64,000 nt of DNA. Source: a virus. Taxonomy: Duplodnaviria > Caudoviricetes. Shown here in pieces: positions 6,551-59,956 of the stretch. The notes beneath the pieces are model-generated. The model searched no databases. It had not been told where the DNA came from and saw nothing but the letters and a program-made list of their open reading frames with translations. The translations under genes were made by a program, and so were the position numbers. The stretch's first letter is position 1. Each line of letters starts with the position of its first letter. The stretch is from IMG/VR virus record IMGVR_UViG_3300036713_000599. One strand, written 5' to 3'.

Positions 6551-7486
6551 ATGGCTGTGTACTACGAGTGGGTGGTTCAGTACCAAGGATCTATCCCGTA
6601 TGAGGGAGAATGGCCTCTCGGTGTTCCCTCGAACTTCGAGGAACTTCATAGAGAATACGGTGGCTTTGTTGCCTCAAGGGTTAGGAGATACAACAAGGTA
6701 GAAAGGAACTTCGAAGACCTTCTTCAGGAGGTGTGGGCACATCTGATACATGTTGACCTCTTGGAAAAATTCAAAAAGTCTGGAATGGGGAAGCTTCCGT
6801 TAACGATGACTGCAAACGAAGCCTGCAGCTTTCTGGGTATAACGTTCCCTCAGTGGGTCAGAGTCTTAGAAAATAACGACTTCGTGAGCCACCTCGATGG
6901 GTCACGTTTCAGTGAGGAAGCTGTTTTCCTCACTGAAGACGTAGTGAACCTGGATAACTGCTTTTCTCCAGAATGGGGTGGGAACCAAAGCCCTTGGGTG
7001 AACAGAGGAAAGAGGACCCGTCCTCGTATGACAGCAAAAGGCTTCAAGGCGTATTTAGAGAGAGCGGTTTCGAATGCCTTCAAGAACTTCTGTCGGACAA
7101 AGGATCGCAGGCACAAGGATCATCCGATTTCTCCTTCATCGCATCTTGCCCCGACATCTGCGGGCGAGTATCGCCGCTCGGTTAACTTAGAGAATCAGTC
7201 TTCTTGGGAGGATGGTATTGCTGCCGCTATGACCCTCGACCAAGAAGACGCTATTGATCTGGCTCGCCAAATTCGTAAGGCCAGTATTGACCCTGAGTCC
7301 AACGACGGTGCAGAAATCCTCGACCTTCTTTTGCACCAAGGGCGTTCGCGCCATGACGGCCCTCAACGGAACATCGACACCATAATTCTCTTGGGACAAG
7401 GATACAGCCTCTCAGACGCTGTGAAGAAGGCTCGTGCTAGGTCCAGGGACCGTGTTAAGCGGCAGCAACAGGCCGTACTAGGATGA
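6551..7486 (+). CDS. ECF/sigma70-like factor with an HTH inserted in region 2
   Basis: FEDLLQEVWAHL and FKAYLERAVSNAFKNFCR resemble ECF region 2 helices; inserted MTANEACSFLGIT resembles an excisionase-type HTH. Confidence 0.6.
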   Translation: MAVYYEWVVQYQGSIPYEGEWPLGVPSNFEELHREYGGFVASRVRRYNKVERNFEDLLQEVWAHLIHVDLLEKFKKSGMGKLPLTMTANEACSFLGITFPQWVRVLENNDFVSHLDGSRFSEEAVFLTEDVVNLDNCFSPEWGGNQSPWVNRGKRTRPRMTAKGFKAYLERAVSNAFKNFCRTKDRRHKDHPISPSSHLAPTSAGEYRRSVNLENQSSWEDGIAAAMTLDQEDAIDLARQIRKASIDPESNDGAEILDLLLHQGRSRHDGPQRNIDTIILLGQGYSLSDAVKKARARSRDRVKRQQQAVLG

Positions 7487-7526
7487 TACTCCTTCTATGG
7501 TCTCCTAGGGCTTAGGAGACACCTTC

Positions 7527-8372
7527 ATGCAGAAGCTAGCGACCACCCAAATCAAATTGGCTCACAAGGCTAACATCACGGCCCGTAAGATTTACGCATC
7601 CTTGCCTTTTGGTTACCGGTTCGGTGCGATGATGGAGATCTTCTCTGATTCGTATGCAGGGATGAAGGATATGCTGGCCCGTGTCCTTTATGCGGAATTT
7701 CTGAAGGCTGGTGTTCCAGGGATGGTGGTAGGTGGGGTACCTGGAGAGGAGCTTCGGGACAAGGCGATCGAAATGGGTCGGAACGCTTACCGCCTTATCC
7801 CAAAAGGATACGGTAGTCAATTTGCTCGGAAACTTCTTGGGATGGTTCGGAACAAACTTGCGACCGAGGACTTGACCCAGGAGTTTTTGGGCGAGTTGAT
7901 GCTGATGGTCACCGAAGGCAAGCTTAAGATCAACGGTAGTAGTGCCAAGAGTCTGAAGGGGGCCGAATCTTTCACTCTGACGTTTGTTTCCCGTCGCGTC
8001 ATCGATTTTCTTCGGAGCCGGGGTCCAAGAAACCAGGAAGTTTCCATCAGTCCTGGTGGATCGGACGAAGAGGCCCCTAGATTCGAGATTGAAGATCCTC
8101 GAAGTGTGTCGAATATTCTCAACCGAATAACTCCTGGCGAGGAGAAGAGGTTGATTGCCGACTTAGGCAAGATTGACCGACGAAATCCTGAACGTCCTCT
8201 GCAGTATGTTCAGTTCAAGATGGAAGGTATGACCAACCAGCAGATTGCGGACGAGTGGTGGCCCCACCAGCAGGTCAACAAGGGCTCGATGTCTGATTGG
8301 GTGAAGAGACATCTTCCGGACATAAAGGCCGTCTTCAGTAAATATGTCTGGTCTATGCGTGAGGTGGTGTAA
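7527..8372 (+). CDS. Sigma70-like factor
   Basis: EDLTQEFL...VSRRVIDFLRSR (region 2-like); KMEGMTNQQIADE...SMSDWVKR (region 4-like HTH). Confidence 0.55.
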   Translation: MQKLATTQIKLAHKANITARKIYASLPFGYRFGAMMEIFSDSYAGMKDMLARVLYAEFLKAGVPGMVVGGVPGEELRDKAIEMGRNAYRLIPKGYGSQFARKLLGMVRNKLATEDLTQEFLGELMLMVTEGKLKINGSSAKSLKGAESFTLTFVSRRVIDFLRSRGPRNQEVSISPGGSDEEAPRFEIEDPRSVSNILNRITPGEEKRLIADLGKIDRRNPERPLQYVQFKMEGMTNQQIADEWWPHQQVNKGSMSDWVKRHLPDIKAVFSKYVWSMREVV

Positions 8373-8381
8373 GTTCCCTTC

Positions 8382-9947
8382 GTGGAACAACTTAACACCA
8401 TTATCTGTGGCATCACCCTCGAAGTACTAAAAACCCTCCCCGACAATTCTGTCGACGCTGTTGTGACCGACCCCCCTTATGGTCTCGGCCAAAGGAAGAT
8501 TTCGTCGGAACAGCTCGTTGGGTTCCTGCAGGGAGATGGTCTTGACACAGGGGGAGACTTTATGGGGGCTAAATGGGAGATTCCTTCTGTCCTCGTGTGG
8601 AAAGAAGTGTACCGAGTTTTGAAGCCCGGTGGTCACGTTTTGTCGTTTGGGGGAACGCGGACAATAGATCTCATTAGCTTGGGTCTTCGGGCAGCTGGTT
8701 TTGAATTTCGCGATTCGATTTTGAACATGTACGCTTGGTGTTATGGGTCAGGTATGCCAAAATCTGAGAACATTTCCAAGCGGATAGACAAAAGAGCGGG
8801 TGCTAAAAGGGAGGTTGTCGGTAAGAGCCCTTACGCGGCCCGTGCAAATAAGCACCCAAGAGCTATGTCTCCAGGCGACCTTCCCAGGAAGGTTGAAGAC
8901 ACGAGGGAGATCACAGCTCCTGCGACTCCCGAGGCTAAGCTTCACGAGGGTAAGGGTACGGGACTCAAGCCTTCTTTCGAGCCCGTCGTGCTTTTCCGCA
9001 AACCCTGTGAAGGCACCACTACGGACAATGTCTTGAAGTATGGGACAGGTGCTCTCAATATTGATGCGTGTCGAGTTAAGCATTCAAACAAGAAGGATTT
9101 TGAGAACCACAAGTCCCAGGTCGACGCGGTCAGAGCCAAGGGCGGAGTGCGGGACGGATCTTGGAAGAATGCTTCGGACCTTTCTGGGGCTAGTGAGGTG
9201 ACTTCGGCCGGTCGGTGGCCGCCGAACATGACGCTGACGCACCATCTAGATTGTCGGAAGGTTGGGAGTAGGAAGGTGGACGCTCCCGTCATTAATCGGT
9301 TTGATGACGGAGCCAAGCCTTTTGGTGGTGGGGCCGGCCACCAGTACACCTCGACGCAGACGGGTGATGCCGACGGGAAAGAAGACATCATTGTCTGGGA
9401 TTGCGTTGAGGGGTGCCCAGTCAGAGAACTGGATGAACAAAGTGGTGTACTGACTTCTGGTACAGGCGCTGTGAAGAAGGCTTCTGCGAGAGGGGGGAAA
9501 CGTCAAGGGGTTGTTTATGGGAAAGAGACTCGACCAGAAAACACGCCGAATATTGAGTATGTGGGTTCTGGTGGAGCTTCTCGCTTCTACGGCCAGTTCC
9601 AGGACTCCGGGGCACCCTTCCGGTACGTCACCAAACCTTCGGCCAAAGAGTACACCCTCAACGGGCAGATCGAGAATACGCATCCGACCAAAAAACCAAT
9701 AGATTTAATGCGTTGGCTCGTTAGGCTCGTATGTACCAAGGGAGGCACGGTTCTTGATCCTTATTGCGGGTCAGGGTCAACTCTTCACGCAGCCTGCGAG
9801 GAGGGCATGAACTACATCGGTATCGACAAGAACGAGACTGCTTGCAAGATTTCTCGTGATCGGATGAACATTGTCTCAGGTAGGGAGGAGGCACGTCGTG
9901 ACCAAATGGATGTTTTTGACCTTATGATGGGGCTAGACGATGAGTAA
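8382..9947 (+). CDS. N6-adenine/N4-cytosine DNA methyltransferase (beta class)
   Basis: VVTDPPY catalytic motif near the N-terminus; HPTKKP and VLDPYCGSGST SAM-binding motif near the C-terminus. Confidence 0.92.
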   Translation: MEQLNTIICGITLEVLKTLPDNSVDAVVTDPPYGLGQRKISSEQLVGFLQGDGLDTGGDFMGAKWEIPSVLVWKEVYRVLKPGGHVLSFGGTRTIDLISLGLRAAGFEFRDSILNMYAWCYGSGMPKSENISKRIDKRAGAKREVVGKSPYAARANKHPRAMSPGDLPRKVEDTREITAPATPEAKLHEGKGTGLKPSFEPVVLFRKPCEGTTTDNVLKYGTGALNIDACRVKHSNKKDFENHKSQVDAVRAKGGVRDGSWKNASDLSGASEVTSAGRWPPNMTLTHHLDCRKVGSRKVDAPVINRFDDGAKPFGGGAGHQYTSTQTGDADGKEDIIVWDCVEGCPVRELDEQSGVLTSGTGAVKKASARGGKRQGVVYGKETRPENTPNIEYVGSGGASRFYGQFQDSGAPFRYVTKPSAKEYTLNGQIENTHPTKKPIDLMRWLVRLVCTKGGTVLDPYCGSGSTLHAACEEGMNYIGIDKNETACKISRDRMNIVSGREEARRDQMDVFDLMMGLDDE

Positions 9948-16976: not shown

Positions 16977-17438
16977 TTATCTGAGCGTGTTCGAGGGCTG
17001 TGTGTCTGGTACAGGTTCTTCGTCCGTGTTCAACCCGTCCGGTAGATCTTCCGAGAACGTGTTCCGCCTTTTTCGTTCGATGGCGAACGCGACGCGTCGG
17101 AAGATCATGGTTGTGTTGGTGAAGTTTTTGACGATGAAGTCCTCTGCTCCGAGTCGGATCATCCGGAGAGCCAGTTGCAGGTCGGTCGTATTGCTGACCA
17201 CTACAATAGGTATCTCCGGGTATGCGTTGTGTAGTGTCAAGAAGGTGTCGATACCGGACGAGTCAGGTAAATGTAGGTCCAGGATGACGCAGTCGAACAC
17301 GCCTCGCTCCAGGTAGTCACGAGCAGACTGTAGGTTACCTACCTCTCGGAACTTGGCCTCAGAGATGTAATGCTCTTGAAGGGCGAACACGAGGAGTTCT
17401 CGGTCAACGGAGCTGTCTTCGACGATCAGGATGTTCAC
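16977..17438 (-). CDS. Response regulator receiver (CheY-like)
   Basis: ILIVEDS, VILDLHLPD (phospho-Asp), IVVVS, DFIVK. Confidence 0.92.
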   Translation of the reverse strand: MNILIVEDSSVDRELLVFALQEHYISEAKFREVGNLQSARDYLERGVFDCVILDLHLPDSSGIDTFLTLHNAYPEIPIVVVSNTTDLQLALRMIRLGAEDFIVKNFTNTTMIFRRVAFAIERKRRNTFSEDLPDGLNTDEEPVPDTQPSNTLR

Positions 17439-17713
17439 ACGGCCTCCTCTATCTTTTTGACAGGAACGTGCCCTTTTGGCCCTTCAATGACACCATCTTC
17501 GATCGGCCACCCTTTTTGTAGCGCCAGTGCGTCGATATCCCGTCCGCGGACAACAGCACTTGCGATGTCTTTGGCTTGGCCACTTGAGAGCCCTGTCTCC
17601 TCACGGATCATTTGAACAAGTCTTTTGACTTTGTTTTCTTTCTTTTCTTTTGGCTGGTATTTAAAGGCTTCTTTAAGGTATCTTTGGACGACACGTGCGG
17701 TAATAGATCCCAT
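17435..17713 (-). CDS. Small protein with N-terminal ITARVVxRYL motif
   Basis: MGSITARVVQRYL; stop overlaps the REC start; alternative start at 17728. Confidence 0.7.
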   Translation of the reverse strand: MGSITARVVQRYLKEAFKYQPKEKKENKVKRLVQMIREETGLSSGQAKDIASAVVRGRDIDALALQKGWPIEDGVIEGPKGHVPVKKIEEAV

Positions 17714-17829
17714 GCTTACGTCATACATAGGTAAATTTTCGGCAGTGTCTTAGGTTTGGCCGCAGTTCAGCAGACCGGGGCACTGATTTCTGTGGCCGGG
17801 TGCTGCAGGCTTGAGCTTTACCAGACAGA

Positions 17830-18270
17830 CTAGGAGGGTGTGTAGGGAGGGGGCGTGCTTCTGTGGGGTAGTAAGGTGAACTGTAGCCACAGGTAGTGGA
17901 GTTTTCGGGCTAACCTCAACAGCTTCGGGAAACCTACAGGTTTTCGCACGAAGGCGTTGCATCTGCACTCATATGCTTTCTGTACGTCCTGAGGGTGTTT
18001 GGAATTGGTCAGGATGACAACAGGTATCAGGTTGATGTCGGGGTCGGCGTCTTGTCGGATCTCTTTGAGTACTTCAAGTCCACCTACCTTGGGCATATTT
18101 AGATCAAGTAGGACCAGTTTTGGTTTTTTGGGCATCCCTCTCAGAGTTTTAAGCGCAGCTTCCCCGTCCGTTGCAATCGTTATTGACGGCATGTGTGTAC
18201 AGGCATCCCTGAAAGCTTCTGTGAGAAGCTCGGCATCGGTCGCATTATCCTCAACCAGGAGTATGTCCAT
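17830..18270 (-). CDS. Rcp1-like single-domain response regulator
   Basis: DILLVEDN, LVLLDLNMPKVGGLEVLKEIR, IPVVILTNS...DVQKAY...NAFVRKP: Rcp1/phytochrome-partner pattern. Confidence 0.92.
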   Translation of the reverse strand: MDILLVEDNATDAELLTEAFRDACTHMPSITIATDGEAALKTLRGMPKKPKLVLLDLNMPKVGGLEVLKEIRQDADPDINLIPVVILTNSKHPQDVQKAYECRCNAFVRKPVGFPKLLRLARKLHYLWLQFTLLPHRSTPPPYTPS

Positions 18271-19348
18271 TTTCGACCCTAGGTAGTGTGAAATGGAATT
18301 TTGTACCTACCCCTGGTTTCGACCAAGGCCAGATTTTACCTCCGTGTTGCTCTATAACGCGGCGCGCGATGGCGAGACCGATCCCTGTGCCAGGGTACTG
18401 TTCGATCGTATACAGGCGTTGAAAGACACCGAAGATCTTGTTTTTGTGTTGCATGTCAAAACCGATCCCGTTATCGCTTACAGTAATCTTCCACAAAAAC
18501 GGGCCGTACGGTTCCACTTCTATTTTGATGTGAGGCGGTTCGTTTTTCCGTCGGTACTTGATCGCGTTCGAAAATAGATTCTGAATAACTTGGGCGACCA
18601 TACTACGGTCACCATGGATGAGAGGCATGTCGCCCGCTACTTCGATGCGTGCCTTAGATGTGTCTATTTTTCTGACTAGTGACCGTTTTGCTTCCTCAAT
18701 GGCAGCCCCTAACGGGAAAGGCTCGAAGGGTCTTTCTTGGCCTGCCTTCGAAAAGGCCAGAAGATCGTCTAGCTTTTTTTCCATCTGTTGTGAAACGGTC
18801 ACGATCCGGTCTAGAAAATGACACCCTCGTTCGTCTAGGGCGGACTGGTACCTTTTTTGTAGAAGGGTCGCGAATCCTGCAATCCCGGTGAGAGGCTCAC
18901 GGAGGTCGTGTGACACCAGAGACGTGAACTGAGTGAGAGCCTGGTTGACCTCTTGGAGCTTGTGTTGGTGTTCGACGGACTCTGAGATGTCTCTGGTAAT
19001 TACGACGGCAGTATTGTTCGAAGATTTTCCCATATGGGCTTGAAAGTGCTCCAAAGTACCGTTCTTTTTAGGCACAGAGTAAGACAGTATCGCACTCTCT
19101 CCTGTTTCAATGACTTTGCGGACAGCTTCTGTGATCTTGTTCGCGACGTCTTCAGGTAACAGGTCTCTGACATTTTCGCCTATGGGTTTGTTGGTGGAGG
19201 TGAACAGGTACCGCCCTTCTGCGTCGATTTCCGACACAGGATCAGGAAGGGCTTTCATGATACCGTGCAACCTGCCTAGAACTCTCCCTCTCGGGCACTG
19301 GTGTTCGTTCTCACACCTTGGTGGAGTATTTGGGATTATTTGTGTCAT
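18251..19348 (-). CDS. PAS-HisKA-HATPase sensor histidine kinase (Cph1/BphP-type kinase module)
   Basis: SHDLREPL H-box, QNLFSNAIKY N-box, DNGIGF G1, IFGVFQRL...PGTGIGLAI F/G2; one PAS, no GAF/PHY. Confidence 0.93.
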   Translation of the reverse strand: MTQIIPNTPPRCENEHQCPRGRVLGRLHGIMKALPDPVSEIDAEGRYLFTSTNKPIGENVRDLLPEDVANKITEAVRKVIETGESAILSYSVPKKNGTLEHFQAHMGKSSNNTAVVITRDISESVEHQHKLQEVNQALTQFTSLVSHDLREPLTGIAGFATLLQKRYQSALDERGCHFLDRIVTVSQQMEKKLDDLLAFSKAGQERPFEPFPLGAAIEEAKRSLVRKIDTSKARIEVAGDMPLIHGDRSMVAQVIQNLFSNAIKYRRKNEPPHIKIEVEPYGPFLWKITVSDNGIGFDMQHKNKIFGVFQRLYTIEQYPGTGIGLAIARRVIEQHGGKIWPWSKPGVGTKFHFTLPRVENGHTPG

Positions 19349-20316
19349 TGGCTGTTACTTGGTGGTGGTGTGGTCTCGATTGGTGCCGTGATGGTGGTTT
19401 TTTTGTTGGTGTTGGCCGCGAAGTAGGTCGCAGCTGCTGTGGCAAGTACGCCGAACAGAGTTAGGGCGGCGATAACTACCTTTACCCACAGGTCCATCTT
19501 GGTTCGCATTGTCTGGTTGTGTTCCTTGAGCACCGTCATACCTGTCTCAGTCACTTCGTCGTGTAGACCGTCGACGTTGCCTTCGAGAACACTGATCCGG
19601 TGGTCCAGGAGGTCAACCTGGGAACGCATACTTGGGCGATTACTGTGACCTCGCAACAGTTCTTTGTCCAAGAGTGTGACTGTTTTGATTATTTCGTCTT
19701 GCTGTAGCCCTTGTTTGGCGATCTTGAGGCTGATGTCTTGCAGTGCTGAGAAAGTCTTTCGGGACAGATCTGCCACAGCTGAGGTGGTTTCAACTTGCAT
19801 GTCTCGAATAGTGTCGGCACTGGCCCCCCTCTTTTGGGCTTTGTTCATCTTTAACTTTGTGCTAGACACTCGACGAAAACTATCCGCCTCTGTGGGTTCT
19901 AGTCTTACATTTCGTTTGTGTTTTTCGATGGCGAACACGATGCGTCGAAAAATGTCTTCTTCGTCTGTGTACTTTTTTAAAATGAAGTCGGCGGCCCCTG
20001 ATTGGATCATTTCGACTGCGAGGAGCCGATCCTTGTTGTTGGTCATCACAATGAACGGCACATGGGGGTACTGGTCGTATAGTTTTTTGAATGTTTCTTT
20101 GCCGATCGAATCAGGCAGATGAAGGTCGAGTACAACACAGTCGATTGTCTCAGTGTCCAGGATATGAACAGCTGCCGCCAGGGACGGTGCTTCGTACAAA
20201 GTTACCTCTCCTCGGAATTGTTCTTGGAGCAGGTACCGTAGGATTTCTCGGTCCGGGGCTCTGTCTTCTACGAGCAGTATGTGTTGCATTTCAAGTAATA
20301 TGGGCCACAAATGCAT
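19345..20316 (-). CDS. Receiver domain fused to coiled coil and C-terminal TM helix (likely start 20289)
   Basis: ILLVEDR, VVLDLHLPD, FILKK; then heptads and WVKVVIAALTLFGVLATAAATYFA. Confidence 0.85.
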   Translation of the reverse strand: MHLWPILLEMQHILLVEDRAPDREILRYLLQEQFRGEVTLYEAPSLAAAVHILDTETIDCVVLDLHLPDSIGKETFKKLYDQYPHVPFIVMTNNKDRLLAVEMIQSGAADFILKKYTDEEDIFRRIVFAIEKHKRNVRLEPTEADSFRRVSSTKLKMNKAQKRGASADTIRDMQVETTSAVADLSRKTFSALQDISLKIAKQGLQQDEIIKTVTLLDKELLRGHSNRPSMRSQVDLLDHRISVLEGNVDGLHDEVTETGMTVLKEHNQTMRTKMDLWVKVVIAALTLFGVLATAAATYFAANTNKKTTITAPIETTPPPSNSQ

Positions 20317-20723
20317 TTGCGACGACCAGAGGAGCAGTAAGAGTTCGGGTCTTTTGTTGCGGCTGGTATACAGTGTAGAGATACCGAGGTAACACGGTTA
20401 CCGGTAGGATCAGATGACGGCTTTCTACGAGAAGGCAGTGTTGGTGTCGGATTTAGTGATTAGGAGGTGTAGCATGGTTTGGAGATTTTCCAGTTTTGTT
20501 GGATTTTTCACTGTCAGGGTCCCAGGGCAAGAGGATCAGAAATATTCTGAGTTCTGTGAGGCTGCGGATGCTGTTATCAGGTCTAAGAAATATACGATGC
20601 TTTTCGATCCGTGCGGTGATCTTATGTTGACCAAAGGATCCCCCTCTTGATTGCTTGTGTGGAGCTGGTTGTTCCGGGGAGACGTACGAGATCTTGTTCT
20701 GGGCTTGATTCCTGGTGAAAATA

Positions 20724-21088: not shown

Positions 21089-23202
<2,114 letters not shown>

Positions 23203-23236: not shown

Positions 23237-23629
23237 GTGGATAATCGTCTCTTCAAAGTACACGGTCAGCGGCTACACGGCCTTCGTCGCCAGGATCTTC
23301 CCGAGGTGGCTAGGGCCATTGTGGCTGTTGTTCGTAAACAGGCCCAAGCATCGCGTGAGAGGTACCAGGGCGTCGGCTACGTACGTCTGTCGGGCTCTGG
23401 TATAGACGAGATTGTCCTGGCATCGGACTGGGATCTTGTCACGCCGTTCATAGAGGACGGCACATTTAGCCCCCTCACATACCCAACAGGGTCGTGTTTC
23501 GGGTACCTTGATCCAGACACACACTTCGACGGCGCGACGCTAGATCGAAAGGACTGGTATTTCTATCAGCGTGTTTTGGGTGTTCTTGAGCAAATCTTCA
23601 CTGACAGTTACCCTGTTCCCAACACATAG
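23237..23629 (+). CDS. Hypothetical protein
   Basis: 130 aa, co-oriented within the operon. Confidence 0.6.
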   Translation: MDNRLFKVHGQRLHGLRRQDLPEVARAIVAVVRKQAQASRERYQGVGYVRLSGSGIDEIVLASDWDLVTPFIEDGTFSPLTYPTGSCFGYLDPDTHFDGATLDRKDWYFYQRVLGVLEQIFTDSYPVPNT

Positions 23630-23638
23630 GAGACTACT

Positions 23639-23866
23639 TTGTCTGACAATAAAAATTCCCACCTCGCCCCTGGACTGAAGCTGCCTCAACCTCCGCCGCG
23701 GGAAGACAACAAAAAGGTTGTTAACATAAAGTGTCGCAATAAGGGCTGTGATTCCATGACTGCGGAAATTCTTGAGATTCCTGGAAATGGCCACCAGAGA
23801 GTATATCGCTGCACGGAGTGTGGTCACCCTATCGCTGTAAATGTGGGCGGAGGGGTTAATTTCTAA
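23639..23866 (+). CDS. Zinc-ribbon protein
   Basis: CRNKGC...CTECGH; GGAG SD before TTG. Confidence 0.7.
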   Translation: MSDNKNSHLAPGLKLPQPPPREDNKKVVNIKCRNKGCDSMTAEILEIPGNGHQRVYRCTECGHPIAVNVGGGVNF

Positions 23867-24663
23867 TGAGAGAACTAGATGTCGAGACGTTGAAGGCGTT
23901 CGAGGGATTTGTCGCTAAGCATATCCCTGGGTTTGAGGTAAGGTACAAGGACGAGTCGTACCTAATGGCCATTTTGGGAGTCCTTGCTGCACCTTTCAAC
24001 AGGGACTTTGCGACAAGATACACAACCACTTGGGGCAAGAGGGTGTACTTCCCTAGTAGGGAATTTTATCGTGTCGACCCCTCTCGGAGTTTTCGGATTC
24101 TTGCTCATGAATTCGTACACTTGTGGGATAGCCAGGAGCACTGGTACTTTAAGTTATCTTACATGATGCCACAACTCCTGGTATTGGTGCCTATCTTGGT
24201 GCTCATGTTCTTGCTGGGGACGTGCTCTTGGATCCTGGGAGTTCCGATCATAGGGTATGTCTTAGGCGCTGCCTTACGTTCTGTTCACTTCGCCCTTTTC
24301 TGGTTCGTCTTTGGTGTGTCGGTCATAGGGACGGGTATAATGTTGGTGTTTTTTGGTGGGTGGTTACCCCTTGTGGTAGGGTTAGTTGCTCTCCTCTGTT
24401 TGTGCCCATGGCCTTCCCCTTGGCGCACTAAGTGGGAGCTTAGGGGTTACGGGATGAATGTCGCATTGGCCCGGTGGTTGTACGACACCACTTCTGCAAA
24501 GCACTTTTTCAGCATTGCCCGCCACTTCACTGGTCCGAATTATTTCTACATGTGTCGATCCTTGACTAAGATCCTGGCGGCGTTGGGAGACTACACACCT
24601 AGGGACGGCGTTCCCAGGGACGAGCCATATCAGAGAGTCCGTGCATTCCTCAGAGGTTCTTAG
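23866..24663 (+). CDS. Membrane-embedded HExxH metallopeptidase-like protein
   Basis: ILAHEFVHLWD followed by 3-4 TM helices and ELRGY (third-ligand-like Glu). Confidence 0.65.
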   Translation: MRELDVETLKAFEGFVAKHIPGFEVRYKDESYLMAILGVLAAPFNRDFATRYTTTWGKRVYFPSREFYRVDPSRSFRILAHEFVHLWDSQEHWYFKLSYMMPQLLVLVPILVLMFLLGTCSWILGVPIIGYVLGAALRSVHFALFWFVFGVSVIGTGIMLVFFGGWLPLVVGLVALLCLCPWPSPWRTKWELRGYGMNVALARWLYDTTSAKHFFSIARHFTGPNYFYMCRSLTKILAALGDYTPRDGVPRDEPYQRVRAFLRGS

Positions 24664-26760: not shown

Positions 26761-29700
26761 ATGGAGATTGTCAAAACGCGTCAACTGTCTCAGGTCCGAC
26801 TCAGCGAGAATTTTCTCGCCCCTTATCGCCAGAAGGGGGATGTCTTCGAAACGTTGTTGGCAAGGTCAACGTATTTGACCAAGTACTCCAGAGATAAGGA
26901 GGGGCCGTTATCGCACGAGTGTTGGACAGATACAATCAAACGAGTCGTGGAAGGAAATGTTAATCTCGCCCCTGGTGTGAGCGTGGAGGAGGCTCAGTTA
27001 CTATTTCACTTATTCTGGACAGGACAGGCTATGCCTCCAGGCCGTGGCCTGTGGACGGGAGGGGTCGAAGGTATCCCTGCGGACGCTCGTTATAATTGCT
27101 GGTTCACAACTCTGCGGGACATTGATGACTGGTGTTGGACGGCTAACCAGCTTATGCTTGGAGGTGGTGTAGGTGTCGGCCTAACTGAGATCGATTCTCT
27201 GCCGACGGTTTCAGAGGGAAATGCTCGTTTCGCAGTATGGTGTCGGGACAACCACCCCAATCTCGGAGAAGTGGACCCTAACGGTCCTGAGTTCCTTAAT
27301 GGCCAGACTCCTGTATTTAAGTGCGAGGATTCCCGTGAAGGGTGGGTCGCATCTTTTCGGAATGTCTTGGACTCAGCTTTCCGCGGCCAGGACTTGATTG
27401 TCGACGTGTCCGAGGTTCGGCCCAGGGGTGAGCCGATTAAGACATTCGGCGGAACCGCCTGTGGTCCGGGCCCTCTTGTACATCTCCTTCGCTCTTCTTG
27501 GGATTATATCCGGCAGGCGAGAGGCCGCCGATTGTCGTCGGTAGAGGCCCTTGATATCACGAACCACGTTGGTTTGTGCATTAAGGCAGGAAATGTCCGT
27601 CGTTGTCTACCTGGGAACACTTTGGTACACACAGAGACAGGCCTTGTGCCTATTAGGGACGTCAAAGTAGGAGACAAGGTAGCTACTTCTGGGACTAGGA
27701 GTGAGCGTTACATGCCTGTGACAGCCCACATGGATCAGGGGAGGCAGCGGTTGGTGGAGATCGAGAACCAGATGGGTATTTTTCGGTGCACGGGTAACCA
27801 CCTAGTTGCTGTGATGACTGGCATCGGCACGTACGAGTTTAAAAAGGCTTCCGAACTGAAGCCTGGGTCGAGGATGGCTTTTGTTAACCATGACATCCCA
27901 GGAGATGTCACCGAACTCCCGTCTTGGGGGTATGACTGTTCTGAAGATTCAACCGCCTGTGCCGACATCTCGGTTCCAGAATTAACTTCAGAGGTTGCTT
28001 GGTTCTTGGGGTATTTTCTTGGGGGCGGTTACGTTAGAGCTGACCATAAAGAGAACGGGTTCAATGCTGAAGTGGTTATGGCTGTGGCTAACGACGTTGA
28101 TGCTGCGGCCATTGTGGATCGACTGGATTCTGTGTTCTCTGCTTTTGGTGTGAGCACTAGTAAGACTCATCCGAGTAGCTGTGATGACAGCTGGGAGGTT
28201 CGAGCCACGTCCAAACAGTTGGCTCGGTACTTCTGCGAGAACTTCAAACAACCGGAGACAGCCACTAAGGTGCCTGAATGCGTTCTTCGTGGCACTCTTA
28301 GAGTTCGGGCAGCATTTCTCGCGGGTGTCTTGGATTCAGGTGGTCACAACAATAAGCCTGTGGTTTTGTGTGCGTCTGTGTACCCCACTTTCTTGGAGGA
28401 GCTACAGTCTGTTTATGCCAGTATTGGAATCCCTACCAGGCTTAAGTTGAACCGTCCCGAAAAAGACACTTGGCAGCCGATGTGCCATTTAAGCCTCGTG
28501 GGGACAGAGGCCGTGAGCTTCTTCGGGGAAAAAGTCCAGTCTTTTGTTTTTCGTTCGAACAGCAAACAGGCGACAACCCACTTGTTTAGTAGGCTCGGAG
28601 GGGACACAAAGGGACTTTGTCCTATCGAGGTCCTAGAGGTTCGTGATTCTGAGATTTTTTCCGACACTTATGATATTGAGGTTGCCGGAGCTGAGGAGTT
28701 CGTGGCATCCGGTTTGCTCGTACACAATTCCGCTCTCATTACGTTAGGTCATATTTCTGACCAAGAATTCCGTGATGCGAAGAAGGACTCTGCTGCCGTG
28801 ATGAGCCATCGTCACACAAGCAACAACTCTGTAGCTTTCCAGGACTGGGATCAGCTTAATAATTTTGACTGGCGTGGGTTGGTGGCTGATAACATTGATT
28901 TCGGTGAACCAGGGATCTTGAATTTACCCCTTGGTCGTCAGACAGATCCTGGCGTAAAGGGTGTGAATCCGTGTTTCAGTGGGGACACTCGCATTGCTGT
29001 AGCTGATGGCCGTGATTCTGTTACCATCCAAGAACTCGCTGAGGCAGGGGTTGACGTTCCTGTTTATTCTGTGAGTCGCCAGACAGGCAAAGTGGAGATC
29101 AAGATGGGTCGCCATCCTCGCATTACTGGTTTTGGTAAGGAGTTGTTGCGTGTCTGGTTGGACGACGGTGGTTACTTGGACACCACACCTGACCATAGTT
29201 TCCTGCGGCTCGACGGCTCAAAGGTTAGTGCGTGTGACCTGGTACCTGGAGACAGCCTTCCCAGGTTCACTGCCACGGGAGAACATGTCCATTGTGATAC
29301 CCGGGATCCCTCTGTAGAGGCGACACCCAAGAGCCAACTAGTCGTCCCAGTTCTTCAAGAAGACAACGATTCTGCTTCGGTGACTAAAAAGTGTGAGGTG
29401 TGCGGGACCCTGTTCGAGACTCTCCGTGGGTTTAGGGAGAGATCTTTTTGTTCTGATACGTGTGTGAGCGCATACTCTAATCACGAAGACCGGCTCTCTG
29501 CTCCTAAGATCGAATCAGAGCAGGCACGTGTTTGTTCTGGTCTTATGTTTGAGTTAGGTCGAGACCCCAGCCATATCGAATGGTCTCATGCCTGTGCGGT
29601 CGAGGGTGTGGCTTACCACCTAGGCCTGGCTTCCAGTTTCCGACATTTTAGGGAGGTCCTTTCTGCAGGGGCTGCCTACAACCACCGTGTTGTAAAGGTG

Positions 29701-30696
29701 GAGAAACTTCCCGGAGAGCATACGGTCTACAATATAACGGTGGACGACCACCACACCGTGGCTGTGATCACTGAAAGTGCTCTTAAAAAGGACGGGGTTC
29801 ACCACACTGGAGTTTACGTAGCACAGTGTGGTGAACAACTTTTGCATGACCGTGAGGCGTGTAACTTGGCAGAAGTTTTCCCTGCCAAGTTTGGGGCGGG
29901 GACCGACCCTATCACTGTATTCCGGCTTGTGACTCGTTATTGTCTGAGGCAGCGCCTTACTCCACTTTCCGACGAGAGGAGTCATGCTGTAGGTAAACGT
30001 AATATGCGTGTGGGCGTGGGCCTTGGAGGTATTTGCGACTTTGAGTGGACCCCTGAGCTTCTCGCCAGGTGGTTCGGTGCATGTCGTCGTGAAGCTGATT
30101 CGTATGCTGAGGAGCTTGGTGTGAGCAAGCCCATAACAGTGACGACAGTTAAGCCTAGTGGTACCATTTCTTTGGTTAACAGTTCCAGTCCTGGTGTACA
30201 TGCTTCGCACTCTCCTTACTACATCCGTCGCGTTCGGATTGCGAAGAATGATCCAATGTCGGCTGCGATGGCAGAGGCTGGCGTAACCTTCGAAGAGGAC
30301 TTGTGCGACGAGACCCACAACACCTGGGTGTACTCCTTCCCCATGAAGGCGGACAATCCGAAGGTCACTAAGGAAAGTGAGACACTTCGTGATCAATTTG
30401 AGCGCCAGGCGACCATCCAGGAGTGGTGGGCAGACAACGCGGTGTCGAGTACCATAAACTTCGATGCTGAGACCGAAAGGGAGGAGCTTGCAGCATGTTT
30501 CGAGGAGTTCGTCCCTCGCCTTAAGTCTACTGCGGTACTTCCTAAAGGTCATGGGTACGTCCAGGCCCCATACGAAGCTATTGACGAGGCGACGTACAAG
30601 GAGATGGCTCGCGGCATCAATCACGACAGTAAACTTGTGGGCGGTGGGGATATCGAGGTGGAAGAATGTGAGGGAGGCGTGTGCCCAATACGCTGA
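26761..30696 (+). CDS. nrdJ: Class II (AdoCbl) ribonucleotide reductase NrdJ with two inteins (651 aa after splicing)
   Basis: MPPGRGLW, GEPIKTFGGTACGPGPL, GNVRR|SALI, NP|CGEQ, ACNLAEV, TTVKPSGTISL, C-terminal CEGGVCPIR. Confidence 0.93.
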   Translation: MEIVKTRQLSQVRLSENFLAPYRQKGDVFETLLARSTYLTKYSRDKEGPLSHECWTDTIKRVVEGNVNLAPGVSVEEAQLLFHLFWTGQAMPPGRGLWTGGVEGIPADARYNCWFTTLRDIDDWCWTANQLMLGGGVGVGLTEIDSLPTVSEGNARFAVWCRDNHPNLGEVDPNGPEFLNGQTPVFKCEDSREGWVASFRNVLDSAFRGQDLIVDVSEVRPRGEPIKTFGGTACGPGPLVHLLRSSWDYIRQARGRRLSSVEALDITNHVGLCIKAGNVRRCLPGNTLVHTETGLVPIRDVKVGDKVATSGTRSERYMPVTAHMDQGRQRLVEIENQMGIFRCTGNHLVAVMTGIGTYEFKKASELKPGSRMAFVNHDIPGDVTELPSWGYDCSEDSTACADISVPELTSEVAWFLGYFLGGGYVRADHKENGFNAEVVMAVANDVDAAAIVDRLDSVFSAFGVSTSKTHPSSCDDSWEVRATSKQLARYFCENFKQPETATKVPECVLRGTLRVRAAFLAGVLDSGGHNNKPVVLCASVYPTFLEELQSVYASIGIPTRLKLNRPEKDTWQPMCHLSLVGTEAVSFFGEKVQSFVFRSNSKQATTHLFSRLGGDTKGLCPIEVLEVRDSEIFSDTYDIEVAGAEEFVASGLLVHNSALITLGHISDQEFRDAKKDSAAVMSHRHTSNNSVAFQDWDQLNNFDWRGLVADNIDFGEPGILNLPLGRQTDPGVKGVNPCFSGDTRIAVADGRDSVTIQELAEAGVDVPVYSVSRQTGKVEIKMGRHPRITGFGKELLRVWLDDGGYLDTTPDHSFLRLDGSKVSACDLVPGDSLPRFTATGEHVHCDTRDPSVEATPKSQLVVPVLQEDNDSASVTKKCEVCGTLFETLRGFRERSFCSDTCVSAYSNHEDRLSAPKIESEQARVCSGLMFELGRDPSHIEWSHACAVEGVAYHLGLASSFRHFREVLSAGAAYNHRVVKVEKLPGEHTVYNITVDDHHTVAVITESALKKDGVHHTGVYVAQCGEQLLHDREACNLAEVFPAKFGAGTDPITVFRLVTRYCLRQRLTPLSDERSHAVGKRNMRVGVGLGGICDFEWTPELLARWFGACRREADSYAEELGVSKPITVTTVKPSGTISLVNSSSPGVHASHSPYYIRRVRIAKNDPMSAAMAEAGVTFEEDLCDETHNTWVYSFPMKADNPKVTKESETLRDQFERQATIQEWWADNAVSSTINFDAETEREELAACFEEFVPRLKSTAVLPKGHGYVQAPYEAIDEATYKEMARGINHDSKLVGGGDIEVEECEGGVCPIR
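27604..28728 (+). mobile_element. Intein 1 in NrdJ (375 aa) with degenerate LAGLIDADG domain
   Basis: Starts CLPGNTLV, ends GLLVHN, +1 Ser; motifs LGYFLGGG and FLAGVLDSGG. Confidence 0.92.
28972..29826 (+). mobile_element. Intein 2 in NrdJ (285 aa), non-canonical Ala-Gln C-terminus
   Basis: Starts CFSGDTRI; block F VYNITVDDHHT; ends VYVAQ; +1 is the catalytic Cys of NPCGE. Confidence 0.88.
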
Positions 30697-56638: not shown

Positions 56639-59600
56639 GTGGTCGAAAAACGCAACAAGGGTGTAGCCTCGTTAGTTCGGACTGTCGGCCGTGAGGCTAA
56701 GCGGTCTCAGTCCAAGGTCGATTCGAGCGGGGCTCCCAAAATATTTTCGATTCTCGACTACATTGAGGCTCCTTGGGGAATTGGTATGAGCCTGTTCCCT
56801 GCCCAGAGGGTCATTGTTAAACTGTACTACAATTTGCCTCTTGACGAGAAATTACCTGAAGAGGACCATCGTCAGATTAAGATACGGGACATGTTCGGTG
56901 AGAAAGTTCTGTACACTCTCACTGAACGTGAGTACTTGACCTATTTGTATAACGAAGGTCGATGTAACATTGGTGAGCAGGACCACATGCGTCGAGAGTT
57001 GGTCCTTGCAGTCGGTCGCCGTAGCGGGAAATGTGTGTGCCATGATTCTTTGGTTTTGACGGACAAAGGGGTGTTCCAAATTGGTGATTTGGCTGAAGCT
57101 CATGAGGATGACTTTTCGTCATTTGATGTGGGAGTGGTCCAAGAGAAAAGTCGTCGAGCCAGGTCTACTCATTTCTATAATGGTGGCGTGAGGCCGATTT
57201 TTTGTGTGAAAAGCGAGTCTGGTTATTCTATTAAGGGTACAGGGAATCATCGCGTCCGAGTCATGTCCAAGTCAGGCCAGGTGGTGTGGAAGTACCTGGA
57301 CGACATCCGACCTGGTGACTATCTAGCGATCAACAGAACTACGGATCTGTGGGCCTCGGATCTTGTGGATCTTAGGCCATTCCATGACGTGGTTGGCTGC
57401 GAGGAATCGAGCCTGCCCGACCTTTTTGATGAAAAGTGGGGCCGCTTTTTTGGCTACTTGGTGGGTGACGGTAGCTGGAACTACAGTGAGAATCCTGAGA
57501 CACGAGAACGTCTCGGTGAGTTGTATGGTACCCTTTTCGGACTCCATTCGACCTGTACGGGTAAGGGGGTGGAGAATGCCAGGTGTGTTCGGTTTGACGG
57601 TGTGTACCAGTTCTTGGCTAGTCTTGGGTGGGTGGCTGGCTGTGAACGACATGCTAGGACGGTTCCTTGGGCAGTTCTTCGTTCTCCGAGGCATGTTGTG
57701 TGTGCCTTTCTGCGAGGGCTTTTTGAGACAGGCGGCTCAGTGGAGAGCGGGGGAAAACGTATTACATTTTCGACGGCTAGTTTTCGCCTAGTCCGTGAAG
57801 TACAGACCCTTCTTTTGAATCTAGGGATTGTTTGCAGTAGGCGGGTTCGTGAGACTGGTGGGTATCGTGCCGTCCTGAGTGTAAAAGGTTTGAGGTCGCG
57901 GCAACGGTTCGCTAAGTTTGTTGGATTTGACTCTAAGAAGAAACAAGACTTGTTGCTCGAAGCTCTTGAGTGCGCCCAGGAAGGGAATCCAGGTACTGTT
58001 GTGCCTCACCAGCACACAAGAGCCCGGGATTTACTGAATTCAGTCCCACGACTTGAGGGCAACAAGTCGTGCAGACGTCGCCATCTTCGACAAGCCCTCG
58101 GTAGTGTGATTGAGCCTGGTTCGGGTGGAGGCTCGACCTACTCTCGGATGTACGCAGTTGTCGAGGTAGCTAAAGAGCAGGGCGCTGGGAGGCGGGAGAT
58201 TGCCCATTTCGAAGAACTGCTTCATCAAGACTATTTTTTCGATCCTGTGGTATCCGTCGAAGAAGGGGAGGATCAGGTATACGATTTGGTTGTACCTGAC
58301 GGGAAGTCTTTTGTGGCAAATGGTCTAACCAACCACAACACAGCCCTTTCCGGTATTTTCGCAAGTTACGAGGTCTACAGGCTACTCAACTTGTACAACC
58401 CTCAGGAGTACTTTGGGCTGCCGAACGGTAACCGTATTCAGCTTATCAGTATTGCTACGGATAAGGACCAGGCAGGGTTGTTGTTCAATGAAGTGACTAG
58501 CCACATAGCGAAATGTGACTATTTTGCTCCCTACCTTGCGAGTAATACACAGGGTTGGGTAAACTTTCGTACACCGTACGACATCGAGAAATACGGCCCA
58601 AATATTCGACAGGAGGACGGTAAGTTTGTATCCCTCAACGGGAAAGCGTCTTTAAGGGTCACGTTCAAATCTTGTATCGCTAAAGGGCTTCGTGGATCGG
58701 GCAACATTGTCATTATTCTCGATGAGGTCGCCCATTTTCTAGACAAGGGCGGTAGCTCTGCAAAAGAGATCTACGAAGCGGTGACACCCTCGAAGGCTGC
58801 TTTTTCTAGGAAGGACCCCAAAACTAAACGTGCGTGGGTCGATCCAGATACAGGCGAGGTGGCCCCTGTTGAGTCCCGAGTTATTTTGATCTCTAGCCCG
58901 CTCGGCAAGTCAGGTAAATTTTACGAGAAGTTCCAACAGGCTATGGGTGGAGGTGAGGGTTCAGAAAATATTCTCGCCATCCAGGCCCCCACTTGGGAGG
59001 TCAACCCTACCGTTCCTTCGAGCGCCTTTCGGGAGGCGTATCACGCTGACCCTCATACGTATGCTACTGAATATGGGGCTAATTTCAGTGATCAGTCTGT
59101 TGGGTGGATTGAGCGGCAGGGAGATCTTCTGGCGTGTGTTGATCCCGAAAGAAGGCCTCTTTTGCGGGGGCGCCCTAGGGCACCTCATCAGATGGGTATC
59201 GATGTTGGGCTTGTGGACGACGGCACTGCTGTCGTCATTACTCATATTGAAGACGACAAGGTTGTCCTCGACTATCACGAGATATGGTATGCGGGAAAGG
59301 ATTGGCGGGAAACAAATCCGCATTTGGGTTCGAACTTTACGACGGATTATGCTAAGACTCTCAGTGACGTGGAGCGTTTGGACTTCGACGCCATTGCTGA
59401 CTGGATCTCTACCCTGTGTTCTCGTTTCCATATCACAGCTGGACTATTCGATCGGTGGAACGGTATTCCACTTGAGCAGACATTGCATAAGCGAGGACTT
59501 AAGCAATTTAATGCCCAATTCTTTACCAGAGACGCCACCTCTAAGCTTTTTCAGACGACCAAACTCATGATGTTTGACGAATGTTTGGATTTTTATGACT

Positions 59601-59956
59601 ATCCTGTCCCGGAGACAGGCCCCGAAGACGAACGGCACTCGGGCCTTATTCGAGAGCTTTTCTCTCTCCAGTCTAAGCAGATCAGTAAGAATGTTGTCGT
59701 CGTGGAGGCCCCGAAGCGGCGTGGGGCACACGATGACATGAGCGATGCTTTAGTCAGAAGTATTTGGTTGAGTGTGGAGGCCATGCTTAACTCCAAGCAT
59801 GCCTCTAGGGGACGTTCCAGTACGAATCGACTTCGTACTGTTTCTGCCATGACTCCGTCAAGATATCAAGCGATTAGGTCGAGACGTCGCGGTAGAGGAG
59901 ATCGTGTAGCTCCGACACCTCGATCGTTTGTCAGGGGAGGTTTTCGTGGCACATAA
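56639..59956 (+). CDS. terL: Terminase large subunit with intein (669 aa after splicing)
   Basis: Walker A VGRRSGK|T, Walker B IILDEVAHF, ISSP coupling motif, nuclease GIDVG and HDDMSDA. Confidence 0.92.
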   Translation: MVEKRNKGVASLVRTVGREAKRSQSKVDSSGAPKIFSILDYIEAPWGIGMSLFPAQRVIVKLYYNLPLDEKLPEEDHRQIKIRDMFGEKVLYTLTEREYLTYLYNEGRCNIGEQDHMRRELVLAVGRRSGKCVCHDSLVLTDKGVFQIGDLAEAHEDDFSSFDVGVVQEKSRRARSTHFYNGGVRPIFCVKSESGYSIKGTGNHRVRVMSKSGQVVWKYLDDIRPGDYLAINRTTDLWASDLVDLRPFHDVVGCEESSLPDLFDEKWGRFFGYLVGDGSWNYSENPETRERLGELYGTLFGLHSTCTGKGVENARCVRFDGVYQFLASLGWVAGCERHARTVPWAVLRSPRHVVCAFLRGLFETGGSVESGGKRITFSTASFRLVREVQTLLLNLGIVCSRRVRETGGYRAVLSVKGLRSRQRFAKFVGFDSKKKQDLLLEALECAQEGNPGTVVPHQHTRARDLLNSVPRLEGNKSCRRRHLRQALGSVIEPGSGGGSTYSRMYAVVEVAKEQGAGRREIAHFEELLHQDYFFDPVVSVEEGEDQVYDLVVPDGKSFVANGLTNHNTALSGIFASYEVYRLLNLYNPQEYFGLPNGNRIQLISIATDKDQAGLLFNEVTSHIAKCDYFAPYLASNTQGWVNFRTPYDIEKYGPNIRQEDGKFVSLNGKASLRVTFKSCIAKGLRGSGNIVIILDEVAHFLDKGGSSAKEIYEAVTPSKAAFSRKDPKTKRAWVDPDTGEVAPVESRVILISSPLGKSGKFYEKFQQAMGGGEGSENILAIQAPTWEVNPTVPSSAFREAYHADPHTYATEYGANFSDQSVGWIERQGDLLACVDPERRPLLRGRPRAPHQMGIDVGLVDDGTAVVITHIEDDKVVLDYHEIWYAGKDWRETNPHLGSNFTTDYAKTLSDVERLDFDAIADWISTLCSRFHITAGLFDRWNGIPLEQTLHKRGLKQFNAQFFTRDATSKLFQTTKLMMFDECLDFYDYPVPETGPEDERHSGLIRELFSLQSKQISKNVVVVEAPKRRGAHDDMSDALVRSIWLSVEAMLNSKHASRGRSSTNRLRTVSAMTPSRYQAIRSRRRGRGDRVAPTPRSFVRGGFRGT
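57032..58339 (+). mobile_element. Intein in TerL Walker A (436 aa, LAGLIDADG)
   Basis: Starts CVCHDSLV, ends NGLTNHN, +1 Thr; FGYLVGDG and FLRGLFETGG. Confidence 0.92.

Follow-up and report, generated by a model that had tools for sequence, protein, structure and literature searches.

We examined a cassette of five genes at positions 16977-20316 (minus strand) of a 64,000-nucleotide stretch of the caudoviricete virus record IMGVR_UViG_3300036713_000599. This stretch, called the window here, corresponds to bases 40097-104096 of a 240,951-bp IMG/VR record from a sediment sample, for which CheckV estimates a completeness of about 50%. The five genes run in one direction in the list of open reading frames (ORFs) and encode a receiver protein with a membrane anchor (REC1), a sensor histidine kinase, a stand-alone receiver (REC2), a small protein of 97 amino acids (aa) and a further stand-alone receiver (REC3). 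On balance, we favour the joint reading that they form a functional, phage-owned and branched two-component system, with REC1 as membrane output, REC2 as buffer and REC3 with the 97-aa protein as an accessory branch, and that the cassette goes back to a single ancient capture of a three-gene module from a cell, since when it has been inherited vertically as a block. It is probable that such viruses monitor the condition of the cell they infect and exert an effect at its membrane.

Bacteria rely on two-component systems as their chief means of sensing, and in the literature that we searched such systems are hardly described as virus-owned machinery passed on by vertical inheritance. Here, a lineage of giant phages has kept a kinase and receivers over long evolutionary time, exchanging the PAS modules of the sensor between its sub-lineages. 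The chemistry is ordinary; what is new is the virus-only lineage, a receiver output made of a helical stalk and a C-terminal anchor, and the family of the 97-aa protein. The long retention of a cassette with its own membrane output implies an infection decision that is based on an intracellular signal. The genes of the cassette are as follows.

19345-20316, minus strand: REC1, 323 aa; receiver at about residues 11-135, helical stalk at 141-249, C-terminal transmembrane (TM) helix at 276-305
18251-19348, minus strand: sensor histidine kinase, 365 aa; C12/C18, PAS_4 at 33-125, HisKA at 138-204 (H147), HATPase_c at 246-357
17830-18270, minus strand: REC2, 146 aa; stand-alone receiver of the Rcp1/RcpA/BphR type; D56, T88, K110
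17435-17728, minus strand: 97-aa protein, basic and helical; assigned to no family by Pfam or PHROG
16977-17438, minus strand: REC3, 153 aa, GTG start; stand-alone receiver with a short, acidic, Pro-rich tail

A first-pass annotation, made from the sequence alone, had described five co-oriented and mostly overlapping genes. All are present, and three of the four junctions overlap (REC1/kinase by 4 nucleotides (nt), kinase/REC2 by 20 nt and 97-aa/REC3 by 4 nt), the fourth being a gap of 101 nt between REC2 and the 97-aa gene. The true start of REC1 is probably Met10 (20289), since residues 1-8 are disordered in the AlphaFold 2 (AF2) model and most orthologues begin there, and the 97-aa protein may start at Met6 (17713). 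The Met1 start of the kinase is supported by its N-terminal 30 residues, including the Cys pair, which are conserved at the protein level in the closest relatives; the database gene call P0001 (335 aa) begins 30 residues after this Met1.

Catalytic equipment of the kinase and the three receivers

All three Pfam domains of the kinase, PAS_4, HisKA and HATPase_c, score above their cut-offs (HisKA 53.3 bits for a cut-off of 26.9, HATPase_c 93.2 bits). H147, within the motif SHDLREP, is invariant in 10 aligned orthologue sequences, and so are, in the same alignment, the N, G1, F and G2 boxes (N257/N261, D292-G296, F306/F309 and G320-G324, respectively). Judged by the sequence of both its dimerisation and histidine phosphotransfer (DHp) domain and its catalytic domain, the protein is a class I HisKA-type sensor kinase. 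It has no hydrophobic segment by hydropathy, which makes it a soluble protein, and it is the sole HisKA protein of the 241-kb record. Its matches in the PDB are 8f71, HK853 and the kinase modules of bacteriophytochromes (BphP at 1e-25 to 1e-28). A phytochrome or bacteriophytochrome was considered and ruled out, as the PAS-GAF-PHY photosensory module with its bilin-binding Cys is not there: the Pfam scan found neither GAF nor PHY in the 365 residues and a single PAS_4 before HisKA, in line with the earlier description of a kinase with one PAS input and no chromophore module.

The segment CENEHQC that had been noticed ahead of the PAS domain is indeed found at residues 12-18. It had suggested redox or metal sensing, which is not supported as a general input, because the Cys pair (C12/C18) is confined in the alignment to the nearest subclade and the PAS modules are swapped between subclades. 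The sensor end carries PAS_4 in the window and its closest relatives, another PAS in the loci L005, L007 and L011, two PAS in L015 and none in L012, and the cue likely differs between the sub-lineages, as far as domain composition tells. A PAS-kinase-like protein, annotated as hypothetical, is also encoded at 89498-90487 of GenBank OR578706.1 (Microcoleus phage My-WqHQDG, a cultured cyanophage of 163 kb), with 30% identity over 91% of the query.

In REC1, REC2 and REC3, the Response_reg domain scores 68-74 bits for a cut-off of 30.2 (REC1 68.4, REC3 73.7). The alignments bear out the claim that the phospho-His and the three phospho-Asp/Lys sets are intact: REC1 has the acidic pair E17-D18, the phospho-Asp D64, T92 and K114, REC2 has D8, D56, T88 and K110, and REC3 has D8, D54, S82 and K104. 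The catalytic boxes of the kinase and the D/D/T/K sets of the receivers stay invariant in orthologues down to about 45% identity. Between the window and the viral contig L004, the proportions of nonsynonymous (pN) and synonymous (pS) differences in the five genes are 0.18-0.23 and 0.69-0.81 (saturated), respectively, giving a pN/pS of 0.25-0.31 and hence purifying selection. The concern that the proteins might be catalytically dead is dispelled by the invariant residues together with this selection.

REC2 matches the PDB entries 5te9 (phmmer, 1e-24), 6xvu (9e-22), 1i3c (Rcp1, 4e-20) and 1k68 (RcpA, 5e-19), aligned through residues 135-139, and by these matches it is an Rcp1-type single-domain response regulator, encoded directly downstream of the kinase. 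Pfam, the PDB matches, the adjacency and the receiver tree agree with the earlier assignment of the kinase and REC2 to the Cph1/Rcp1 type of gene pair. Like Cph1-Rcp1 of Synechocystis, CphA/B-RcpA/B of Calothrix and BphP-BphR, the cassette has a kinase core of the same subfamily followed, in the same order, by an Rcp1-type receiver of about 147 aa. The photosensory GAF and PHY domains are theirs, whereas the cassette has one PAS_4 and, in addition, an anchored receiver, the 97-aa protein and a third receiver. Moreover, those pairs are cellular, whereas the cassette is virus-encoded and forms its own clade.

The output is the unusual part. No DNA-binding output domain was found by Pfam on any of the three receivers. 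The AF2 model of REC1 has helices at 141-162, 167-223, 230-249 and 276-305, and residues 278-296 (Kyte-Doolittle 2.14) are the sole TM-grade segment of the cassette. This tail is conserved in 21 homologues, in which the hinge motif LDxELLRGHSNRPSMRSQVD is almost invariant; its family comprises 22 clusters among 5.8 billion, every one of them with a receiver, and the REC-TM gene adjoins the kinase in every context inspected. The tail is absent from 80 cellular loci, no REC-TM protein was found in GenBank phages, and Pfam, PHROG and the Atlas returned no convincing family match for the tail. A match to the viral DUF7201 (Atlas feature search, 0.84) was rejected as being at chance level, the best permissive Pfam matches having 12-14 bits (DUF7807, DUF1515). 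The archaeal MetOD3 is a rare case of a membrane-anchored response-regulator output (PMC5847659). Going by its description, it resembles REC1 in joining a receiver to a membrane-anchored output and in its narrow phyletic range, but it is archaeal and chromosomal, whereas the tail of REC1, a helical stalk with a single C-terminal TM helix, occurs in giant phages only. Finally, REC1 and REC3, the two receivers with the DLHLPD motif, are paralogues as had been proposed (47% identity over 125 aa, E 1e-39), and they form a single clade in the receiver tree.

Distribution among giant phages and origin of the cassette

The order REC-TM, kinase, REC2 recurs in L004, L005, L007, L011, L012, L015/L016 and L097 and in two further contigs; synteny in related phages, which the first-pass annotation had proposed as a check, is thus kept in at least seven other giant-phage lineages. 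The carriers measure 372 kb (L004), 452 kb (L005), 182 kb (L007), 437 kb (L011), 24.8 kb (L012) and 51 kb (L097), and the lineage of the cassette is one of phages of 180-450 kb. In L004, protein identity to the window is 63-77%, and the 97-aa protein, REC3, GroEL and four further syntenic neighbours are present as well. The 97-aa protein, REC3 and the GroEL neighbour often accompany the triad in relatives; REC3 has orthologues in L004, L015/L016, L097 and one further contig, and several lineages have the triad without it. The record of the window has one HisKA protein and three receivers, and the record behind L011 (G003; 437,331 bp, direct terminal repeats, rated 100% complete) has exactly one HATPase_c kinase and two receivers.

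Two-component genes are typically cellular, and CheckV rates the record, which was assembled from a metagenome, as about half complete, so that one may ask whether the cassette is an artefact, i.e., a chimera with host DNA, or a passenger, i.e., a recently captured operon without a role. We hold either to be extremely improbable. The window carries genes for a large terminase, a portal, a UvsX-like recombinase, a clamp loader, a ribonucleotide reductase, an NAD ligase and a Dda/exonuclease V-like helicase, and phage genes lie on both sides of the cassette, with a GroEL-type chaperonin and a DNA polymerase III delta-like protein to its right and a dCTP deaminase, a methyltransferase, a papain-like peptidase and a sigma-like protein to its left. 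The GC content is flat over the region (0.49-0.53), with no composition break. A chimera with host DNA, named earlier as what would overturn the annotation, is excluded because numerous assemblies that are independent of one another have the block, one of which is a complete genome ending in terminal repeats. The phage-only clades described below, the purifying selection and an identity to cellular proteins that never exceeds 45% also speak against a passenger.

The cellular scan covered one genome per species for about 185,000 prokaryotic species. It yielded 580 relatives of the kinase. The best of them come from a scatter of unrelated phyla and share 36-45% identity in the catalytic core; homologues from the phage lineage have 50-76% identity. 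We built a tree of 206 kinase cores, including those of seven cassette-bearing phage loci, 119 metagenomic homologues and 78 cellular sequences. All seven phage loci and the 119 metagenomic sequences make up one clade of 126 rows (FastTree Shimodaira-Hasegawa (SH)-like support 99, stem of 0.36 substitutions per site), inside which none of the 78 cellular kinases falls. The same split was obtained from 70 rows with IQ-TREE under a site-heterogeneous model (SH-like approximate likelihood ratio test, 100). In the receiver tree, in which the rows L004_REC2 and L011_REC2 were disregarded as out of frame, the phage REC2 clade (support 98) lies inside a cellular Rcp1-like group (support 95), and the phage REC1 and REC3 sequences together form a clade (support 100, stem 1.43) among the receivers of cellular multidomain proteins. 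Inside the REC1 sequences of the phages lie those of REC3 as a clade of their own (support 100), which means that REC3 is a duplicate made in the phage lineage. The phylogeny of the kinase and the receivers, which the first-pass annotation had called for, thus reveals old phage-only clades and not a recent capture from a host, cellular identity being at most 45%.

Most of the 80 cellular loci have a kinase followed by an Rcp1-like receiver of about 150 aa, and the third gene is very often REC-PAS-GGDEF-EAL, REC-GGDEF or REC-PAS-kinase (e.g., loci L042, L044, L060 and L089). It is among these third-gene receivers that phage REC1 nests. A cellular module of kinase, Rcp1-like receiver and receiver-effector is the likely evolutionary template of the cassette, as judged from gene order and tree position. 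The phages have swapped the enzymatic effector for a coiled coil with a C-terminal anchor and moved the effector gene upstream of the kinase. The cellular three-gene modules and the cassette have in common the kinase, the single-domain receiver and a further, DLxLPD-type receiver. The modules differ in that their output is enzymatic and the effector gene lies downstream of the kinase, whereas the cassette has the coiled coil and TM helix encoded upstream, and identity is at most 45%.

A similar arrangement was seen in other viral contigs. In L008/L009 (402 kb), positions 7172-9543 encode, in the order of the cassette, a REC-helical-TM protein of 256 aa, then a PAS kinase and then an Rcp1-like receiver, with 31-40% identity, and in L010 (101 kb) positions 7143-9417 encode only a 610-aa kinase and a receiver. 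These kinases fall among cellular sequences on long branches, and the loci are either very divergent members of the lineage or independent captures.

By portal, the nearest deposited relatives of the window are LR745208.1 (uncultured, 485 kb, 48% identity) and the cultured Acidobacteriota phage Tunturi_5 (38%; PMC11924767), the latter match being the sole hint at the host. A nucleotide search against GenBank phages returned a single match of 222 bp with 67% identity. Bacterial-type kinases are retained in other phage genomes: phage phiCDHM1 of C. difficile carries an agr locus with the AgrC kinase (PMC3901668), and pelagiphages have histidine kinases beside curli genes (PMC9599517). According to the text of these papers, what those phages carry is a lone kinase or a quorum-sensing set closely related to host genes, whereas the cassette is a complete and old phage-only block. 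The large surveys of jumbo phages that we read describe no cassette of this kind: the one relevant mention in Iyer et al. 2021 is of a divergent receiver without any link to kinases (PMC7824862), and the survey of huge phages by Al-Shayeb et al. 2020 makes no mention of two-component genes.

A proposed branched circuit with an output at the membrane

In the branched reading that we favour, the soluble PAS kinase would read an intracellular cue, autophosphorylate on H147 and hand the phosphate to the receivers. REC1 would be the main output, its dimeric helical stalk transmitting the effect of phosphorylation to the cytoplasmic membrane, the site of the resulting change, and not to transcription. 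REC2 would be a competing acceptor, serving as a buffer, a sink or a modulator of the kinase, and REC3 with the co-translated 97-aa protein would form an accessory soluble branch. Lysis timing or the exclusion of competing phages would be the leading candidates for the membrane step. What we infer is which proteins exchange phosphate, what REC1 and REC2 do, what the cue is and which step at the membrane it governs. The cassette is compact and soluble apart from one anchor, and it offers H147 of the kinase, D64 of REC1, D56 of REC2 and D54 of REC3 as handles for point mutation.

The phosphorelay that the first-pass annotation had imagined did not hold. No Hpt (histidine-containing phosphotransfer) domain (PF01627) was found in four phage genomes, namely the record of the window and three relatives, two of which reach a completeness of 94% or more, and the 97-aa protein is not an Hpt protein either, as its family has no conserved His or Asp. 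The absence of Hpt makes this a one-step branched system and not a strict phosphorelay. HisKA kinases need a Thr or Asn at H+4 for phosphatase activity. The H-box of this kinase reads H-D-L-R-E, which we take to be without such a residue, and a separate phosphate sink would therefore be useful.

Several observations weigh against a conserved signalling system with a membrane output. LR745208.1 and Tunturi_5 have no receiver and no kinase-grade HATPase_c (LR745208.1 has one sub-threshold match of 23 bits); the cassette is therefore dispensable for the wider group and marks a subclade only. One member of the cassette lineage sits in the NCBI metagenome-assembled genome GCA_004196275.1; this has the look of a phage contig binned in error, although the carrier may be a cell. 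As for the 119 metagenomic kinases of the phage clade, gene context was read for a minority. The phosphotransfer partners are deduced from gene adjacency only. The sequencing runs listed as containing the region are three DNA runs from sediment metagenomes, which may be its source, and no RNA run is among them. The tail of REC1, a single TM helix and a short external segment with no recognisable effector fold, may be only a tether. Lastly, neither a lysis gene (endolysin, spanin) nor known membrane machinery was recognised next to the cassette by Pfam and PHROG.

The branched reading can be made more specific, with a correspondingly doubtful standing: it is possible that the cassette is a private, phosphorylation-gated membrane switch, in which the kinase reads the energetic or infection state and REC1, buffered by REC2, times a breach or a sealing of the membrane. 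Such a switch would mean that a virus uses the circuit logic of the Detocs defence for a life-cycle decision of its own, and it would add a new class of receiver output and a new small partner protein.

Detocs consists of the kinase DtcA, the stand-alone receiver DtcB, which buffers leaky activation, and the receiver-effector DtcC, and a minority of its effectors are membrane-spanning (bioRxiv 10.1101/2023.01.24.525353). The circuit logic is like that of the cassette, namely a kinase, a receiver without output and a receiver fused to an effector that does not bind DNA. In Detocs, the sensor is made of tetratricopeptide repeats (TPR), there is a PNP domain and the genes lie in host defence islands, whereas the cassette has a PAS sensor and no PNP and is phage-borne. 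The likeness is thus an analogy of circuit logic and not a family assignment, and it is from the experimental precedent of DtcB that a buffering role would be ascribed to REC2.

One might go further and propose that the cassette is itself a Detocs-like conflict module: the kinase would sense a competing phage or a host defence, phosphorylated REC1 would oligomerise in the membrane and permeabilise or arrest the cell, and REC2 would buffer the leak, with superinfection exclusion or abortive killing of co-infected cells as the outcome. The match in logic supports this, as does REC1 itself, with its conserved TM tail and its lack of an enzymatic domain; a minority of Detocs effectors span the membrane too. 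Systems aimed at competitors are also known from huge phages. We nevertheless consider it unlikely. In PADLOC-DB 2.0.0, a version in which the presence of Detocs models is unconfirmed, the kinase has no match and the receivers have only weak generic ones (PDC-M60B/C, 20-30 bits); the sensor is PAS and not TPR, a single TM helix would make a meagre killing effector, and the nearest cellular relatives belong to ordinary signalling with cyclic di-GMP or kinase outputs, not to defence islands.

The first-pass annotation had also considered that the phage drains phosphate from host kinases. REC2 and REC3 would then intercept host phosphate as a sink or decoy, or the phage kinase would mis-phosphorylate host regulators. 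There are three receivers for one kinase, two of them without output, and Rcp1-type receivers are widespread in potential hosts, so that cross-talk is conceivable. Yet the receivers have long co-evolved with their own kinase as phage-only clades, which fits an insulated cognate system, and REC1, the partner with the strongest conservation, is anchored in the membrane and is no free decoy. We therefore regard a sink or decoy as quite improbable.

The 97-aa protein, transcription signals and neighbouring genes

The 97-aa protein has the core FKYQPKEKK...IRExTGxSRGxAEDIADAxVRGR...QKGWP...EGPxG. It is predicted by AF2 (predicted local distance difference test 83.8, and above 90 for residues 30-97) to fold into three helices, a beta-hairpin and a final helix. 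Its family has 16 close clusters, and a profile search found 55 representatives in 1.84 billion; it occurs in loci of the phage lineage only. Foldseek found no match at E<=0.001 in the PDB and none in the AlphaFold database clusters, and all Atlas matches were below a template-modelling (TM) score of 0.5. The wide VIA-align search gave a best Z of 5.8, to generic helical channel segments, which is insignificant. The weak structural neighbours are mostly helix-turn-helix (HTH) proteins (GerE, AraC and TetR at TM scores of 0.44-0.49; MntR/FasR at low probability), none of them significant. In 4 of 10 contexts the gene stands directly before a REC gene, or in 5 when a single gene in between is tolerated; in 8 of 10 the triad is no more than about 4 kb away, and the gene also occurs without a neighbouring receiver. 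When REC3 (residues 1-128) and the 97-aa protein were predicted as a complex, the score was 0.00, which was counted neither for nor against binding.

These properties could suit a transcriptional circuit, in which the 97-aa protein would be a factor that binds DNA or RNA polymerase and is controlled by REC3, or is held by the membrane protein REC1, the anchor serving for localisation only. In favour are the basic, helical nature of the protein and its helix-Gly-helix core, the prevalence of HTH regulators among its weak neighbours, the company that its gene keeps with REC genes and the triad as just described, and a phage sigma-like gene and a promoter motif nearby. Against this stand the lack of any significant fold match or Pfam family, its occurrence away from receivers, and the absence of REC3 from several lineages with the triad, and in our estimate such a circuit is unlikely to be what the cassette is for.

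In P0172, a metagenomic protein of 423 aa, a member of the 97-aa family follows a Tad3 domain (type I Thoeris inhibitor, 86.5 bits) at the N-terminus, by fusion or by a wrong gene call. A real fusion would hint at a link to counter-defence. Among the longer family members scanned, only P0172 has a recognisable extra domain, the match of P0200 being low-complexity noise.

A motif resembling promoters of extracytoplasmic function (ECF) sigma factors, CCGAAM-N16-CGTA, has 6 copies in the window, for 0.21 expected.

2280, 4561 and 6488, plus strand: copies of the ECF-like motif
16937 and 46148, minus strand: copies of the ECF-like motif
17717-17742, minus strand: weak copy, CCGAAA-N16-CGTA, overlapping the start of the 97-aa gene

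One copy lies upstream of the sigma-like gene at 6551-7486 (marginal Sigma70_r2, 25.8 bits) and one just beyond the stop of REC3. The motif probably represents the promoter class of a phage sigma factor. The copy at 17717-17742 is an uncertain candidate for a separate promoter of the 97-aa gene and REC3; in the relatives, the motif is not conserved upstream of cassette genes, including the 97-aa gene. At most, the 97-aa gene and REC3 would form a transcription unit apart from the triad. Upstream of REC1, a looser variant of the motif (20321-20347) was discarded as within chance (10 observed, 5.2 expected). Scans for sigma-70 promoters (1 site, 3.4 expected) and terminators (7, 5.7 expected) were uninformative.

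Directly before the 97-aa gene, four of the related loci carry a reverse-complement tRNA T-arm sequence (GGATTCGAACC-like), at the following places.

L004:12420-12487: antisense tRNA-like stretch
L012:5610-5679: antisense tRNA-like stretch
L097:6930-7000: antisense tRNA-like stretch
L011:10720-10792: antisense tRNA-like stretch

This sequence accounts for spurious N-terminal extensions of database entries, P0148, P0151 and P0154 among them. In the same four loci, tRNA genes part the triad from the pair of the 97-aa gene and REC3.

The chaperonin gene of the window (21535-23202, plus strand; Cpn60_TCP1, 213 bits) is divergent from the cassette and about 1.2 kb away. Its neighbourhood is kept in L004 (82% identity), L007 (60%) and a 133-kb contig of the European Nucleotide Archive (ENA), and a 143-aa ORF directly upstream (21089-21520) and two small ORFs downstream (23237-23866) are conserved with it. 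Next, at 23866-24663 (plus strand), a 265-aa ORF without a Pfam or PHROG family has an HExxH motif (AHEFVH) followed by several hydrophobic segments, and may encode a membrane metalloprotease-like protein. Near the cassette in L015/L016, L098 and the 133-kb ENA contig are genes of translation and RNA repair, namely those for EF-Tu, EF-Ts, RtcB and ClpP, as well as genes for thymidine kinase and HNH endonucleases. Finally, the ribonucleotide reductase ORF (26761-30696, plus strand, 1311 aa) and a terminase-like ORF (56639-59956, plus strand, 1105 aa) far exceed the length of their PHROG profiles and each match their own profile in two separated stretches, which suggests inteins or other insertions in both.

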